From an uncultured Bacteroidales bacterium (lineage in GTDB: Bacteria; Bacteroidota; Bacteroidia; Bacteroidales; Muribaculaceae), in the NCBI GenBank assembly GCA_902776835.1, contig CACYRK010000027.1, positions 12,782-76,781 on the forward strand: DNA of 64,000 bases. Direction: 5' to 3'. The notes beneath the pieces were generated by a model. That model saw only the letters and a program-made list of their open reading frames with translations, did no database searches and was not told the origin of the DNA. Numbering within the stretch: the first letter of the stretch is position 1; every line of letters begins with the position of its first letter. This document shows, piece after piece, positions 24,610-33,751 of the stretch. The position numbers and the translations under genes are program-made.

Positions 24610-24656
24610 TCCGAATCAGGTTAAAAAAATCACTTGTGCGTTCGGGCGTTTTTTTG

Positions 24657-25877: not shown

Positions 25878-26699
25878 TCAGTGCACGTTGAAGAGCAACT
25901 TGACCAGCGTAGCGTTGTCTTTGTCGGGGTTGAGTTTCAACATGTTCAGCGCGTTCTCGATGCGGCTCAGGCTGGGCTCGTTCTTGATGAGCACGGTGCC
26001 ATCGGCAGCAAGCAGGTAGAACAGCGGCATGGTGGGCAGCGCGTAGGCGTCGTTTTCCTCGATGGCCTGAGCCTTGTCATAGCCGTTGACAATCCACGGC
26101 TCAAAGGTGTTGCGCTTCCACTGCTTCTGTTCCTTGCCGGGGTACACGGCCACGACGTTCAGTTCGCCGCCTTCGGCCATGTCTTTAACTAATTTGCTGG
26201 CCTCGAGGTTGGCCTTCACCTGGTGGCATGCCTCGCACGACGGGTCGTTGAAGTACACCAGGGTGGGCTTGCCGTTGCCGGCCAGCAACTGGGTCGTCTT
26301 GCCGTCGGCCAGCGTGAGTTGCACATCGGTGGCTGCGCCGCCAATGGCATTCTTCTTCGCCACGGCGAGCATGGCTTGCGGACGGGCTTTCTCCGAGCCG
26401 CTAAGCACGTAACTCGACACCACGTGGCTCAGGCCGACGGCGTAGAGCACCTCGTTGTGAAGGCTGTCGGCGGGGTCGCCCATGCGCTCAATCATCTCCA
26501 CCGCTTTGCGGTAACTCTTAGGCTGCTCGGCGAGGCTGTTGAGAGTGCTTTGAAGAATCATCACGGCGTTGTCCTGTGGGAAGTTCGACAACTGCATCAC
26601 CAGCCCGGTGAGTTTGTCGGTGTCAACGCCGTAAAACTGTGCGCTGGCCATCAGGTTGACAAGCGCAAAGAGTGCGATAAAACCAATTTTTTTCATCAT
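25878..26699 (-). CDS. Secreted thioredoxin-fold (TlpA-like) protein with DUF5106-like N-domain
   Basis: Signal peptide; YFNDPSCEACHQ (CxxC) in a thioredoxin-like C-half. Confidence 0.65.
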   Translation of the reverse strand: MMKKIGFIALFALVNLMASAQFYGVDTDKLTGLVMQLSNFPQDNAVMILQSTLNSLAEQPKSYRKAVEMIERMGDPADSLHNEVLYAVGLSHVVSSYVLSGSEKARPQAMLAVAKKNAIGGAATDVQLTLADGKTTQLLAGNGKPTLVYFNDPSCEACHQVKANLEASKLVKDMAEGGELNVVAVYPGKEQKQWKRNTFEPWIVNGYDKAQAIEENDAYALPTMPLFYLLAADGTVLIKNEPSLSRIENALNMLKLNPDKDNATLVKLLFNVH

Positions 26700-26761
26700 T
26701 CTATAGTTAATTTTTTCATTTCACAATTATCCAGGAAGCCACAGCGCATCCCTTCAGCCCG

Positions 26762-26769
26762 CAAAATTA
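26762..26769 (-). promoter_or_regulatory. -7 promoter box (TAATTTTG) for the TlpA-like gene
   Basis: Exact TAnnTTTG on the minus strand, 62 nt upstream of ATG 26699. Lies at the outer end of the long left inverted repeat of RAYT copy 1. Confidence 0.5.
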
Positions 26770-26823
26770 CAAAAAATTTCAATATCTCCTCCCAACACCC
26801 CTTAAAATCCACGCAACCGCAAT

Positions 26824-26874
26824 CCCGCCACACCTCCCCGCGGCACAACCGCGGCCACCAAACCCCGCTTGTGA
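26824..26874. repeat. REP-like hairpin repeat, left flank of RAYT copy 1
   Basis: Reverse complement of 27798..27848 (37/38 identical over tcacaRgcggggtttggtggccgcggttgtgccgcgg). Internal GCCGCGG-n5-CCGCGGC hairpin. Confidence 0.75.
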
Positions 26875-26914
26875 TTTTTTTTAAAAGAAAATTGCATTTT
26901 TCCTGCTGACGCGG

Positions 26915-26922
26915 TAAATTTG
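26915..26922 (+). promoter_or_regulatory. Possible -7 box (TAAATTTG) for RAYT copy 1
   Basis: Exact TAnnTTTG but only 4 nt before ATG 26927. Confidence 0.3.
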
Positions 26923-26926
26923 CAAT

Positions 26927-27790
26927 ATGGAATGGAAAGAAAACATAAACAAGCAGCACAAGGACGGAATACATGAGCCTTCGATGAAGCGCCGCTGCAC
27001 AGCGCACGATTACAAAAACCGCTGCTTTTACATGATAACGCTAGTGGTAAACAAGCGCCATCCGCTGCTGGGCACCATCGAAGGTGACGGGCTGACGAAC
27101 CAGGCCCAAATAAAACTTGGCGTGCTTGGCCAAGCAGTGACCAAAGAACTTGTCGCTATCCCAAATTTTTACCCGCAACTCGAAATTGGAAGGCTACAAA
27201 TCATGCCCGACCACCTTCACGTCATAATCTTTGTGAAAGAACCCATTCCAGTGCATTTGGGGAGAATAATAAATGGTTTTAAAGTCGCTTGCAACAAAGC
27301 GTTCAGAGCGCTCAAAGAGCAAGGAAAAGTCAAAAGTGACTCAACAGCACTTTGGGAGCAAGGATATCACGACCGCATCCTGCGCCATGAAGGCCAACTT
27401 CAAAGAATGCGCAACTACATCGCCGACAATCCACGCCGCTGGGCCATCAAAAAGAATAACCCTGAGTTGTTCCGCGTGCGGCACAATGTGGAGGCTGGAG
27501 GCCAACTCTTTGCAGCACAAGGCAATGTGTTTCTTCTCGACGCTCCTTGGCTCGTGGCGGTGAAGTGCAGCCGGAGTCTCAGCCAGGATGAGATTGCAAG
27601 AGAATGCGAGCGTTATCTCTCGCAAGCCCGAGAGGGGGCCGTGCTGGTGTCGCCGAGCATCAGCGCAGGCGAGAAAGCGGTTATGCGCGCGGCTTTTGAC
27701 CAAGGTTTTCCCCTCATCTTCTTGCAAGACGAGATGGCCGAGGCAATCTGCAGTGAAAATCGTGGCACAGCCACAATGCAAAAGCCGTGA
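26927..27790 (+). CDS. RAYT-like HUH (Y1, IS200/IS605-superfamily) transposase with ~100-aa C-terminal extension, copy 1
   Basis: RRCTAHDYKNRCFYMITLV, PDHLHVIIF (HUH), WEQGYHDRIL (catalytic Tyr), NYIADNPRRW. Then an extra domain: LFAAQGNVFLLDAPWLVAVKCSR...GAVLVSPSISAGEKAVMRAAF. Confidence 0.75.
   Translation: MEWKENINKQHKDGIHEPSMKRRCTAHDYKNRCFYMITLVVNKRHPLLGTIEGDGLTNQAQIKLGVLGQAVTKELVAIPNFYPQLEIGRLQIMPDHLHVIIFVKEPIPVHLGRIINGFKVACNKAFRALKEQGKVKSDSTALWEQGYHDRILRHEGQLQRMRNYIADNPRRWAIKKNNPELFRVRHNVEAGGQLFAAQGNVFLLDAPWLVAVKCSRSLSQDEIARECERYLSQAREGAVLVSPSISAGEKAVMRAAFDQGFPLIFLQDEMAEAICSENRGTATMQKP
27419..27729 (+). repeat. 311-nt direct repeat (3' part of RAYT copy 1)
   Basis: Hand alignment to 33311..33621 gives 12 mismatches and no indels (about 96% identity). 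Confidence 0.85.
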
Positions 27791-27797
27791 ATAAGAT

Positions 27798-27848
27798 TCA
27801 CAGGCGGGGTTTGGTGGCCGCGGTTGTGCCGCGGCGGGGTGGGAGAGG
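27798..27848. repeat. REP-like hairpin repeat, right flank of RAYT copy 1
   Basis: See 26824..26874. Starts 7 nt after the RAYT stop. Confidence 0.75.
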
Positions 27849-27889
27849 GTAATTTTCGGGGAGGGAATGGGTGTTATGGATATTTTTTG

Positions 27890-27897
27890 TAATTTTG
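27890..27897 (+). promoter_or_regulatory. -7 promoter box (TAATTTTG) for ybaK-aroC
   Basis: Exact TAnnTTTG in ttttttgtaattttg, 17 nt upstream of ATG 27915. Lies at the outer end of the right inverted repeat of RAYT copy 1. Confidence 0.5.
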
Positions 27898-27914
27898 CGG
27901 AAAAATAGTGGCTT

Positions 27915-28394
27915 ATGAAGAAAATCAATAAGACTAATGCTGCGCGACTGCTCGACAGGGCCAAGATGCCCTACGAACTGGTGCCCTATGAGGTCGACGA
28001 GAACAACCTTGCCGCCGACCATGTGGCGCAGGCGCTGGGCGAGGACATCAACTGCGTGTTTAAGACACTGGTGCTGCATGGCGACCGTGTGGGCCACCTC
28101 GTGTGTGTGGTGCCCGGCAATGCCGAGGTCGACCTGAAGAAGGCCGCGCGCGCCGCCGGCGACAAAAAGGTGGAGATGATTCACATGAAGGACCTGCTGC
28201 CCACCACGGGTTACATTCGCGGCGGTTGCTCGCCAATAGGCATGAAAAAGCCCTTCCCTACGTTTATCCACCAGTCCTGCCTGCAGTACCCCGTCATCTA
28301 CGTCAGCGCCGGAATGCGCGGCCTGCAGTTGAAAATCGCTCCGCAAGCCCTCGTTGACTTTGTTGGCGCCACAGTAACTGATTTAATCGAGTAA
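27915..28394 (+). CDS. ybaK: Cys-tRNA(Pro)/Cys-tRNA(Cys) deacylase YbaK
   Basis: MKKINKTNAARLLDRAKMPYELVPYEVD... and the KTLVL...HM YbaK/EbsC pattern; 159 aa. Confidence 0.85.
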   Translation: MKKINKTNAARLLDRAKMPYELVPYEVDENNLAADHVAQALGEDINCVFKTLVLHGDRVGHLVCVVPGNAEVDLKKAARAAGDKKVEMIHMKDLLPTTGYIRGGCSPIGMKKPFPTFIHQSCLQYPVIYVSAGMRGLQLKIAPQALVDFVGATVTDLIE

Positions 28395-32009: not shown

Positions 32010-32780
32010 ATGAATACTAGCAAAATTGTACTCATCACTGGTGCCACGAGCGGCATCGGACGGGCTTGTGCAATGAAGTTTGCAAGCCAACCAGGTTATG
32101 ACGTAATTATCACTGGCCGCAAGCCGGAATTGCTTGCCGACCTTGAGGCCGAGTTGAAAAAGTGTGGCAAGGGCCGCGTGACCACCTTGTGTTTCGACGT
32201 GCGCGAACGTGGTGTCGCCTTTGAAGCCATCGCCTCGCTGCCCGCCGACTGGGCCGAAATCGACGTGCTCATCAACAATGCCGGCCTCGCACTGGGCCTT
32301 GAGCCGGAATACGACGGCAGTTACCTCGATTGGGACACGATGATCGACACCAACATCAAGGGCTTGCTGACCATGACGCGCCTGGTGGTGCCGGGTATGG
32401 TGGAACGCAACCGCGGCCATGTGATTAACATCGGCTCGGTGGCTGGCGACGCCGCTTACGCCGGCGGTAACGTGTATTGCGCCACTAAGGCTGCTGTGAA
32501 GACGCTCACCGACGGCTTGCGCATCGACGTGGCACACACCGCAGTGCGCGTGACAAACATCAAGCCCGGATTGGTGGAGACCAACTTCAGCAACACCCGT
32601 TTCCACGGCGACAACGCCCGCGCCGACAAGGTGTACCAAGGCATCGAGCCGCTCACCGGCGACGATATTGCCGACGTAGCCCTCTACGCAGCACAGGCTC
32701 CCGCCCACGTGCAGATTGCCGAGGTCCTCGTCTTGGCCACCCACCAAGCCAGCGGCTCAGTAATCCACCGCAACTCCTAA
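32010..32780 (+). CDS. SDR-family NAD(P)-dependent oxidoreductase (YdfG-like)
   Basis: TGATSGIGRA, NNAG, YCATKAAV (YxxxK). Confidence 0.88.
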   Translation: MNTSKIVLITGATSGIGRACAMKFASQPGYDVIITGRKPELLADLEAELKKCGKGRVTTLCFDVRERGVAFEAIASLPADWAEIDVLINNAGLALGLEPEYDGSYLDWDTMIDTNIKGLLTMTRLVVPGMVERNRGHVINIGSVAGDAAYAGGNVYCATKAAVKTLTDGLRIDVAHTAVRVTNIKPGLVETNFSNTRFHGDNARADKVYQGIEPLTGDDIADVALYAAQAPAHVQIAEVLVLATHQASGSVIHRNS

Positions 32781-32781
32781 T

Positions 32782-32810
32782 CCCAGCCACAGCACTGCTG
32801 TGGCACAGGG
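32782..32810. repeat. REP-like hairpin repeat, left flank of RAYT copy 2
   Basis: The reverse complement of cccagccacagcactgctgtggcacaggg matches 33637..33665 at 27/29. Internal CCACAGC-n3-GCTGTGG hairpin. Ends 8 nt before the ATG. Confidence 0.75.
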
Positions 32811-32818
32811 AACTTCTT

Positions 32819-33625
32819 ATGGATTGGGAAGAGTATAAAAACAAAAAACAGTGGGCTGGAAAGGCCAAGCCTTCGATGACCCGTCGCCGCATCGGCCACG
32901 ATTACCATGGCCGATGCATTTACATGGTCACGCTGGTGGTTAACGGCCGACAGCCGCTGCTGGGCACTATCAAGGGCGATGGCGAGAAGACACCTGCGAA
33001 AATGCTGCTCAGCGACCTCGGCGATGCTGTGTCACAAGCACTTAGCAGTCTTCCACGCTTTTATCCTGCACTGCAAATATGGAATCATCAAGTCATGCCC
33101 GACCATTTGCATGCCATCTTTTTTGTGCAAGAGCCCATCCCAATGCATTTCGGAAAAATAGTAAATGGCTTTAAAACCGCTTGTAACAAGGCATTAAGGA
33201 GACTTAAAGAGCAAGGAAAAGTGAAGACGGGCCTGATGTCACTTTGGGAACCAGGCTATAACGATCGCATCCTTGACCATGAAGGGCAACTCCAGCGCAT
33301 GAAAAACTACATCGCCGACAACCCTCGCCGCTGGGCCATCAAAAGGAATAACCCTGAGTTGTTTCGTGTGCGGCACAATGTGGAGGCTGGAGGCCAACTC
33401 TTTGCAGCACAAGGCAATGTTTTCCTTCTCGACGCTCCTTGGCTCGTGGCGGTGAAATGCAGCCGGAGTCTCAGCGAGGATGAGATTGCAAGAGAATGCG
33501 ATCGATATCTCTCGCAAGCCCAAGAGGGGGCCGTGCTGGTGTCGCCGAGCATCAGCGCAGGCGAGAAAGCGGTTATGCGCGCGGCTTTTGACCAAGGTTT
33601 TCCCCTCATCTTCTTGCAAGATTGA
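32819..33625 (+). CDS. RAYT-like HUH (Y1) transposase with C-terminal extension, copy 2
   Basis: RRRIGHDYHGRCIYMVTLV, PDHLHAIFF, WEPGYNDRIL, NYIADNPRRW. The C-terminal extension is nearly identical to copy 1. Confidence 0.75.
   Translation: MDWEEYKNKKQWAGKAKPSMTRRRIGHDYHGRCIYMVTLVVNGRQPLLGTIKGDGEKTPAKMLLSDLGDAVSQALSSLPRFYPALQIWNHQVMPDHLHAIFFVQEPIPMHFGKIVNGFKTACNKALRRLKEQGKVKTGLMSLWEPGYNDRILDHEGQLQRMKNYIADNPRRWAIKRNNPELFRVRHNVEAGGQLFAAQGNVFLLDAPWLVAVKCSRSLSEDEIARECDRYLSQAQEGAVLVSPSISAGEKAVMRAAFDQGFPLIFLQD
33311..33621 (+). repeat. 311-nt direct repeat (3' part of RAYT copy 2)
   Basis: Partner of 27419..27729. Confidence 0.85.
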
Positions 33626-33636
33626 TTATTGTGGTT

Positions 33637-33665
33637 CTCTGTGCCACAGCATTGCTGTGGCTGGG
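33637..33665. repeat. REP-like hairpin repeat, right flank of RAYT copy 2
   Basis: ctctgtgccacagcattgctgtggctggg; starts 11 nt after the stop. Confidence 0.75.
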
Positions 33666-33674
33666 TTGAGATAG

Positions 33675-33708
33675 CACAGGCGGCGCCCGAGATTGGGTGC
33701 CGCCTGTG
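33675..33708. terminator. Hairpin between RAYT copy 2 and the C10 gene 3' ends
   Basis: cacaggcggc ... gccgcctgtg (10 bp); weak T-run. Confidence 0.4.
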
Positions 33709-33751
33709 TTATATTGCGGGTGCAAGCCTTGTGAAGGCTTGGCCTGGATGC

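Follow-up and report, generated by a model that had tools for sequence, protein, structure and literature searches.

The window analysed here is a stretch of 64,000 nucleotides from contig CACYRK010000027.1 of an uncultured Bacteroidales bacterium of the family Muribaculaceae, with a G+C content of 54%, and its relatives come from metagenome-assembled genomes (MAGs) of rumen and gut Muribaculaceae. Between a divergently transcribed thioredoxin-like gene (25878..26699, minus strand) and ybaK (27915..28394, plus strand; a TIGR00011 match at 191 bits) it carries a gene for a Y1 HUH enzyme that resembles the REP-associated tyrosine transposases, or RAYTs, where REP stands for repetitive extragenic palindrome. 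This gene, called copy 1 here, lies between two inverted arms that contain hairpins, and a paralog, copy 2, lies 6 kb away. We put a probability of roughly 60% on the reading that copy 1 is one of two paralogous, self-contained cassettes specific to Bacteroidales, each composed of its own promoter, a HUH-DprA gene like those of the RAYTs and of the TIRYTs (the enzymes associated with terminal inverted repeats, or TIRs), and inverted hairpins that are particular to that copy.

Copy 1, its arms and the promoters around it

The coding sequence (CDS) of copy 1, its arms and the spacers outside them are as follows.

26927..27790, plus strand: copy 1 CDS, 287 amino acids as assembled and 333 in relatives; Y1 HUH domain and predicted DprA-like domain
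26831..26882, no strand: left inverted arm, with the exact 31-nt core at 26838-26868 and the stem-loop CCGCGG-CACAA-CCGCGG at 26838-26854
27790..27841, no strand: right inverted arm, with the hairpin GCCGCGG-TTGTG-CCGCGGC at 27817-27835 and GTGG at its 5' foot
26778..26830, no strand: C-rich left spacer, with weak mirror likeness to 27842-27881 and a 12-13 nt indel in other strains
27842..27881, no strand: G-rich right spacer, the mirror of 26778-26830

The original prediction, made from the letters of this stretch, placed the gene between its own inverted hairpin repeats, and a repeat search recovers them as arms of 52 nt that are 88% complementary. The 31-nt core GCGGGGTTTGGTGGCCGCGGTTGTGCCGCGG is exact in both arms, where 100 shuffles gave an expectation of 0. 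The details needed some adjustment: the blocks 26824-26874 and 27798-27848, described as reverse complements, are complementary at 44 of 51 positions and their core matches at 36/37, not 37/38, while of the two hairpins written as GCCGCGG-n5-CCGCGGC the right one is perfect and the left one has a mismatch and a 6-bp stem. The weaker mirror likeness that was said to run on outward is present as far as 26759 and 27900 (local alignment score 88, z 34.6, 54/81 columns). Folded as single-stranded DNA (ssDNA), the arms reach -9 to -13 kcal/mol, with z between -2.3 and -4. The foot of the copy-1 hairpin reads GTGG-CCGCGG-TTGTG-CCGCGG; copy 2 and most relatives have the 3' tail ACAGGGAAC instead.

Intrinsic terminators were considered for the arms and rejected, since none was flagged and the stems have no T-run after them; the idea that the 38-nt cores are simply a pair of terminators, which the original prediction had offered as its own alternative, thus finds no support either. 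No known RNA family matched in or around the arms at E <= 1.

Strains differ in the copy-1 left spacer and arm, where indels are seen at 26822 and 26837. A 12-13 nt insertion at 26822-26837 (TCCCGCCACACC or CCGCTACACCTCA), present at the related locus L001 and in samples X2, X3 and X11, duplicates a piece of the C-rich spacer in tandem. At the loci of relatives, hairpin units are spaced by C/A-rich linkers that resemble this spacer.

Three promoter boxes surround or lie within the cassette.

26759..26777, minus strand: promoter box of the thioredoxin-like gene, the host's own; TAATTTTG at 26763-26770; the outermost 19 nt of the mirror
27882..27900, plus strand: promoter box of ybaK, the host's own; TAATTTTG at 27890-27897, 17 nt before the ATG at 27915
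26915..26922, plus strand: the cassette gene's own -7 box, TAAATTTG, of Bacteroidota type, 4 nt before the ATG

The outward-facing boxes at the ends of the arms had been predicted correctly, but the further proposal that the arms provide the neighbours with promoters is not supported: the boxes are positional homologues of the host's. In Muribaculaceae species that lack the insert, the thioredoxin-like gene and ybaK stand divergently 74-97 bp apart, and two back-to-back TAnnTTTG -7 boxes form a small palindrome between them (for example CCGCAAAAGTAGTAACTTTGCAGC). The cassette therefore sits in the middle of a divergent promoter pair that was there before it. A YbaK scan of metagenomes returned other species only, and no insert-free copy-1 site of the same species was found in it. 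The outermost 19 nt of the copy-1 mirror (ATTTTTTGTAATTTTGCGG) are the generic promoter consensus of the window genome, recurring in the window with at most 3 mismatches at 24649, 39009, 58608 and 60398, and TAnnTTTGC is generally enriched, with 26 matches against 7.5 expected. At 43 of 79 homologous loci, TAnnTTTG is found no more than 45 nt upstream of the start of the gene.

The four recurrences lie upstream of unrelated genes and share the extended consensus TTTTTTTGTAATTTTG(C/T)GG, which is usable as a promoter signature of this genome. Public RNA data hold weak signs that copy 1 is transcribed, in the form of three low-depth contigs that lack direction and could be DNA carry-over. One RNA contig spans the right arm through the ybaK box; the RNA contigs place no transcription start site.

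These boxes bear on another explanation of the arms, namely that they are mainly host palindromes (divergent promoters at copy 1, terminator-like at copy 2) which the incoming gene split or duplicated and which the enzyme does not recognise. That the copy-1 arms have the host promoter consensus as their outermost 19 nt, and that the boxes are palindromic at insert-free sites, would fit this explanation, as would the gene-less copy-2 site of sample X4 described below, which is a single perfect palindrome with a 13-bp stem. However, the strongest copy-1 repeat, the exact 31 nt and their inner extension, is neither promoter-like nor flagged as a terminator; related loci share a motif of hairpin plus ACAGGGAAC, with tandem arrays beside the gene; and the sequence of the hairpin changes together with the HUH half of the protein. 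We regard host palindromes as a quite improbable account of the arms.

Distribution of the hairpins

The layout had been described as that of a classic REPtron. In a classical REPtron the gene would be a domesticated, single-purpose RAYT and its hairpins would belong to a dispersed REP or REPIN family that is mobilised in trans. Whether the hairpins are dispersed was evaluated for both copies; the features of copy 2 are these.

32819..33625, plus strand: copy 2 CDS, 268 amino acids as assembled and 326 in relatives; 74.6% amino-acid identity to copy 1 (tblastn)
32777..32813, no strand: copy 2 left arm, hairpin CCACAGCA-C-TGCTGTGG and tail CACAGGGAAC
33634..33670, no strand: copy 2 right arm, 37 nt, 89% complementary to the left arm

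The inverted repeat of copy 2 differs in sequence from the copy-1 arms, and in the 64 kb the arm cores of each copy occur only at their own two sites. The 38-nt core, which was proposed as a candidate REP family, is thus confined in the window to the two places that flank the gene, which is what the original prediction had itself set down as refuting a REP family. Sequencing run X1, the metagenome that matches best, contains 95% of the words of this region and is in other respects identical to the window; only five of its contigs touch the copy-1 left arm. Four of them are the flanks and the fifth is a unitig of the 31-nt core with a depth of 125, against about 65 for the flanks, and therefore there are exactly two copies of the core per genome. 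No further core matches were found in X1 at >=80% likeness, and the depth over the copy-2 arms is 1x.

The same holds for the relatives. A significant flanking inverted repeat is present at 31 of 79 of their loci, with a sequence specific to each locus, and in the 20-kb surroundings (10 kb on either side) of about 35 loci essentially no distant arm copies were found past the immediate flanks of the gene. GC-rich hairpins are threefold enriched beside the gene, with 2.5 per kb within 400 bp of it and 0.77 per kb elsewhere.

The part of the REPtron description that stands is a gene between inverted cognate hairpins with class-2 motifs; there is no REP family to go with it. In favour of a REPtron one can add that REP_Tyr_transpos is the best NCBIfam model for the protein, that one source names a relative RayT, and that the copy-1 hairpin has GTGG at its 5' foot, compared with GT[AG]G in canonical REPs. 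Against it, the core occurs twice in 64 kb and, by depth, twice per genome, the score of the RAYT model is under its cut-off, and two or more paralogs per genome are common. A dispersed REP family was rejected by the window, unitig-depth and relatives' flank searches together, and the REPtron explanation, largely refuted already, is very improbable. The cassette is self-contained, with hairpins only beside the gene, and is not part of a genome-wide REP system.

The motif of hairpin plus ACAGGGAAC is common to related loci, some of which carry tandem units of 60-70 bp, each a hairpin and a C/A-rich linker, beside their genes in both orientations.

L007, 10970-11275: tandem hairpin array
L025, 5456-5700: tandem hairpin array
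L026, 6623-6722 and 7763-7863: tandem hairpin arrays
L029, 9818-9912 and 11078-11322: tandem hairpin arrays

A CRISPR-like reading of these arrays was rejected: their 'spacers' are repeated as well, and the arrays are therefore tandem duplications. Separately, partial arm matches (19-24 nt, 89-95%) lie inside the CDS at three loci, L032 (~10348), L033 (~10344) and L077 (~10402), some 350-450 nt from its start. They could be intragenic copies of the hairpin, of the kind reported for subclass 2.4 of the TnpA-Y1 enzymes (PMC6006769).

The protein, its paralog and the Bacteroidales family

The motifs that had been read from the copy-1 CDS occur in the order given: HDY at residue 27, PDHLHVIIF at 94, GYHDRIL at 146 and NYIADNPRRW at 163. 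The main features of the protein are listed with their positions in the window.

27212..27220, plus strand: HUH motif H96-L97-H98 in PDHLHVIIF, aligned to the HUH of ISDra2 and S. tokodaii TnpA
27416..27418, plus strand: Y164, predicted catalytic tyrosine (YIADNP), aligned to the Y of the IS200-type YI motif and matching YIxxNP
27479..27787, plus strand: C-terminal Rossmann-like domain with a predicted DprA-like fold (AlphaFold2 and Foldseek), lacking 46 residues in the assembly

The Pfam model Y1_Tnp (PF01797), suggested as a check, matches residues 84-167 at 29.2 bits against a cut-off of 23, and full-length relatives score 26-28 bits. The proposed comparison with RAYT profiles came out less clearly: REP_Tyr_transpos (NF047646) is the best NCBIfam model, but at 55 bits it falls under the curated cut-off of 80. 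The NCBIfam model transpos_IS200 is far below its own cut-off, at 20 bits against 55. Class-2 (TnpA-REP) Y1 enzymes have the motifs HuH, W and YIxxNP, the last of which supplies the catalytic tyrosine with its Y (Quentin et al. 2018, PMC6006769). By this scheme, and by a hidden Markov model (HMM) alignment with S. tokodaii TnpA, Y164 of NYIADNP would be the nucleophile, and the assignment of that role to the tyrosine of GYHDRIL therefore needs correction; the latter is the conserved aromatic residue of the 'W' region. Among 61 aligned homologues H96, Y164, D167, N168 and P169 are invariant and H98 is kept in at least 90%. Compared with Table 1 of PMC6006769, the copy-1 motifs DHLH, WE and YIADNP are class 2 and fall between subclasses 2.2 and 2.5. 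Judged by sequence, the copy-1 protein is a RAYT-like Y1 HUH enzyme. One widespread member of the family, P0083 (a cluster of 81 sequences on 17 contigs), has tyrosine in place of the second histidine of the HUH motif (DHLY) and is otherwise conserved.

The structure of a 333-residue orthologue, P0001, was predicted with AlphaFold2 from the 61-sequence alignment (pLDDT 81.4, pTM 0.75) and compared with known structures in Foldseek. The N-terminal half of the model matches the TnpA of ISDra2 and IS608 best, at E ~1e-5, and also E. coli TnpA-REP, the RAYT structure 4ER8, at 9.8e-5. Residues ~185-323 match the DprA structures 4ljk (H. pylori, E 4e-4), 3uqz (S. pneumoniae) and 5mll, with E values of 4e-4 to 2e-3 and target-normalised TM scores of 0.43-0.45, as well as ShosA (8zva, E 1.6e-5). 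Sequence profiles miss this domain, and Pfam DNA_processg_A (DprA) gave no match to it at E <= 1. A PADLOC scan for defence systems returned no match for the protein, and PHROGs gave a weak transposase match only. The family is thus predicted, on the strength of the model, to fuse a class-2 Y1 HUH domain to a C-terminal domain of DprA-like fold. In literature searches we came upon no paper that connects DprA-like domains with enzymes of the Y1 or RAYT kind.

A search with the protein returned 898 relatives, mostly of 321-333 residues, from gut and rumen Bacteroidales, and 460 loci of the family were located in GTDB representative genomes of Muribaculaceae, Sodaliphilus, Alloprevotella, Hallella and Prevotella. 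At nearly all of the 80 loci that were fetched, the proteins cover the full length of the 333-residue reference. The C-terminal domain forms 440 clusters at 50% identity and is found almost only in fusion with Y1; it mostly occupies residues ~190-320 of matched proteins of ~300-450 residues, which leaves room for an N-terminal Y1 domain. Other architectures were rejected, as the few outliers look like fused gene calls. Cultured carriers include Hallella mizrahii and H. absiana (loci L044/L039). Several genomes in the GTDB scan hold at least two copies of the family. Examples of genomes with two members are the one with loci L003 and L033 (ONJX01000002.1), RUG379, RUG497, RGIG2290, RGIG7579 and RUG11775, and the two members are sometimes within ~17 kb of each other on one contig in opposite orientation.

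Several of these observations would suit an ordinary autonomous insertion sequence (IS) of the IS200/IS605 type, moving by peel-and-paste and kept at low copy number. The protein has the Y1 fold, there are several copies per genome, and the family is placed in unrelated genomic contexts in different species, with no synteny found across species past the window's own. Copy 2 is moreover present in some strains and absent from others. Yet the ends are inverted copies of each other and not the same-strand left-end and right-end hairpins of such elements, the tyrosine motif is YIADNP (class 2) and not Y[IV]ENQ, the IS200 model scores as low as given above, and the paralogs are 75% identical, not near-identical. 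The protein is also twice as large as TnpA and has an additional domain, and tnpB is absent. An ordinary IS seems unlikely to us.

Copies 1 and 2 are not equally similar along their length. Their nucleotide identity is 68.7% over the HUH half and 96.2% from 27413 to the gap described below, and the switch falls exactly at the codons of the catalytic-tyrosine motif NYIADNP.

27413..27729, plus strand: putatively converted tract of copy 1, 96.2% nucleotide identity to copy 2 33305-33621

Full-length orthologues of the two copies show the same two-part pattern. The simplest reading of these alignments is that the C-terminal half may have been converted between the paralogs while the HUH half and the hairpins diverged together, as would be expected of a HUH half that recognises the hairpin. 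Immediately beyond the outer edge of the copy-2 right arm, at 33671-33712, is a further strong hairpin with 18-nt arms and a 6-nt loop (ATAGCACAGGCGGCGCCC / GGGTGCCGCCTGTGTTAT), whose start, CACAGGCGG, resembles the inner end of the copy-1 arm.

Both genes are short as assembled. The orthologue in GCA_017540215.1, 97% identical, has 138 bp that are missing from copy 1 after 27729, and this in-frame gap is the reason the copy-1 CDS is 46 codons shorter than in all relatives. In copy 2 the missing stretch is 174 bp long and follows 33621, as comparison with an ENA contig shows; it too is in frame.

27729..27730, no strand: junction of the 138-bp gap in copy 1, relative to all relatives including L001

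Both gaps begin at the same base of the two copies, directly after TTCTTGCAAGA; the 10-bp palindrome TCTTGCAAGA immediately precedes each of them. In Logan contigs of eight DNA runs, X1 among them, none spans either junction, and the loose contig ends on either side of both carry full-length sequence. The forms of 287 and 268 residues are each recorded from a single contig of 106,790 bp, and the 333-residue forms are on dozens of contigs. Both gaps are probably an artefact of assembly, to judge from these contigs, and the genes full length in the organism; a real C-terminal deletion is unlikely, its junctions being absent from the eight runs and the short forms confined to one contig. As this locus illustrates, MAG contigs break at inverted repeats and converted paralogs, which also produce spurious in-frame deletions.

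Rearrangements at the hairpins and their interpretation

The evidence for inversion of copy 1 comes from assembled contigs. In those of samples X4, X8, X13 and X25 the stretch between the copy-1 arms runs the other way round with respect to the flanking DNA, within 26838-26876 / 27798-27841: X4 has both joints (26838/27832 and 26876/27798), as does X8, and X13 and X25 have one each. Samples X3 and X11 have the orientation of the window. The contigs cross the arms only where the arms differ, and therefore the inversion paths should be real. Sample X4 also lacks copy 2, with one contig joining 32795 to 33653. What remains at this site, between an SDR gene and a gene of 1114 amino acids, is the single perfect palindrome with a 13-bp stem, CCCAGCCACAGCA-T-TGCTGTGGCTGGG.

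A segment that is bounded by inverted repeats and found in both orientations among samples could also be a programmed invertible element that acts as a phase-variable switch, its orientation governing whether the gene or its neighbours are expressed. However, the gene's promoter lies inside the segment and the neighbours' promoters outside it, and no serine or tyrosine invertase is adjacent. Nor was a mixture of orientations seen within any sample, in contigs that drop minor variants. We consider such a switch improbable.

The analysis establishes the fold and motifs, the inverted cognate hairpins and their confinement to the flanks of the gene, the polymorphisms among strains at these hairpins, and that the outer promoter boxes come from the host. 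In the self-contained cassette that we favour, the enzyme, a putative class-2 Y1 HUH nuclease/transferase of ssDNA, would bind and cut the hairpins of its own arms and cause the rearrangements seen there, as we infer from these features. The region would become single-stranded, for example on the lagging-strand template, and the HUH half would then recognise its cognate hairpin, cut at the hairpin foot and form a 5'-phosphotyrosine link, while the DprA-like half may hold the ssDNA. The substrates would be the cassette's own ends and not a genome-wide REP population; if so, the outcome to be expected is rearrangement at the hairpins and not the spread of REPs. It could take the form of excision or insertion of the cassette, local duplication of hairpin units and possibly inversion.

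Several points weigh on the other side. Replication slippage or recombination by the host can, with no part played by the enzyme, invert DNA between inverted repeats of 40-50 bp and delete across a palindrome. Only ~40% of homologous loci have a clear inverted repeat on their flanks. The likeness to DprA is structural only, with a target-normalised TM score of 0.45 and no Pfam match. Finally, dispersal was searched in metagenome contigs at >=80% likeness and within 10 kb on either side of relatives, not in a closed genome.

A bolder proposal is that HUH-DprA fusions are undescribed hairpin-directed ssDNA recombinases which invert and excise their own hairpin-bounded cassette and amplify it locally in gut and rumen Bacteroidales, or which were recruited for ssDNA processing in the host. 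The HUH half would set the specificity, and the DprA-like half would stay constant and be homogenised between paralogs. We offer this tentatively, as possible and rather doubtful.

Among known systems the layout is closest to the TIRtron or REPtron. TIRtrons, whose enzymes are called TIRYTs, have a RAYT-like Y1 gene between long inverted repeats that may be self-complementary and are often not dispersed, one genome can hold several differently decorated genes of this kind, and 'REPtrons in species lacking REP families' have been described as well (Di Nocera et al. 2013, PMC3733652). The layout of the cassette matches both of these, and like a TIRtron it has a RAYT-like Y1 gene between inverted repeats, for which dispersal is not required. 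The TIRYTs described so far are mostly of subclass 2.1, with C-terminal helix-turn-helix or DnaA-like domains and the motif GGGGWSAS in their TIRs (PMC6006769). The C-terminal domain of the cassette protein is instead DprA-like by prediction, its host belongs to the Bacteroidales, and GGGGWSAS was not found in the cassette arms on reading their sequence.

The remaining comparisons are each partial. E. coli TnpA-REP shares the class-2 motifs, the inverted cognate hairpins on both sides and, for copy 1, the GTGG foot. The E. coli REPtron differs in that the cassette has no dispersed REPs, a protein twice as long with an extra domain, and paralogs 6 kb apart. The TnpA of IS608 and ISDra2 resembles the cassette protein in its N-terminal half and in having hairpins at the ends of the element; the cassette differs in a tyrosine motif without the Q of Y[IV]ENQ, in inverted ends, in copies that are not near-identical and in the extra domain. 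Two other TnpA-Y1 subclasses come near in different respects (PMC6006769). Subclass 2.6 (Bacteroidetes, 179 amino acids, NH[LIV]H and YIH[QN]NP, with atypical structures also elsewhere in the genome) belongs to the same phylum and likewise has atypical secondary structures on its flanks, and subclass 2.3 (Gammaproteobacteria, 325 amino acids, NHYH and YVDLNP, no REP or flanking structures) shares the protein length and the large conserved C-terminal domain. The cassette motifs DHLH and YIADNP differ from both, and its flanking hairpins set it apart from subclass 2.3. DprA and ShosA resemble residues ~185-323 in predicted fold; they differ in that the cassette domain has no Pfam or PADLOC match and is fused to Y1.

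What is known of RAYTs and TIRYTs comes almost entirely from Proteobacteria. The 460 GTDB loci represent a large RAYT-like family in dominant gut and rumen Bacteroidales, bracketed by hairpins and without a REP population, and its predicted DprA-like domain is unreported for Y1 enzymes in the literature that was searched. What this adds to the known systems is a Bacteroidales family of DprA-like fusions, with specificity and constant halves that appear to evolve differently, hairpins that are local only, and inversion and loss variants. The natural variants, with inverted segments, a lost copy of which one palindrome remains, and hairpin units in tandem, give a direct handle on the action of such enzymes where dispersed substrates are lacking, and HUH domains of defined hairpin specificity are useful tools for DNA-protein tagging.

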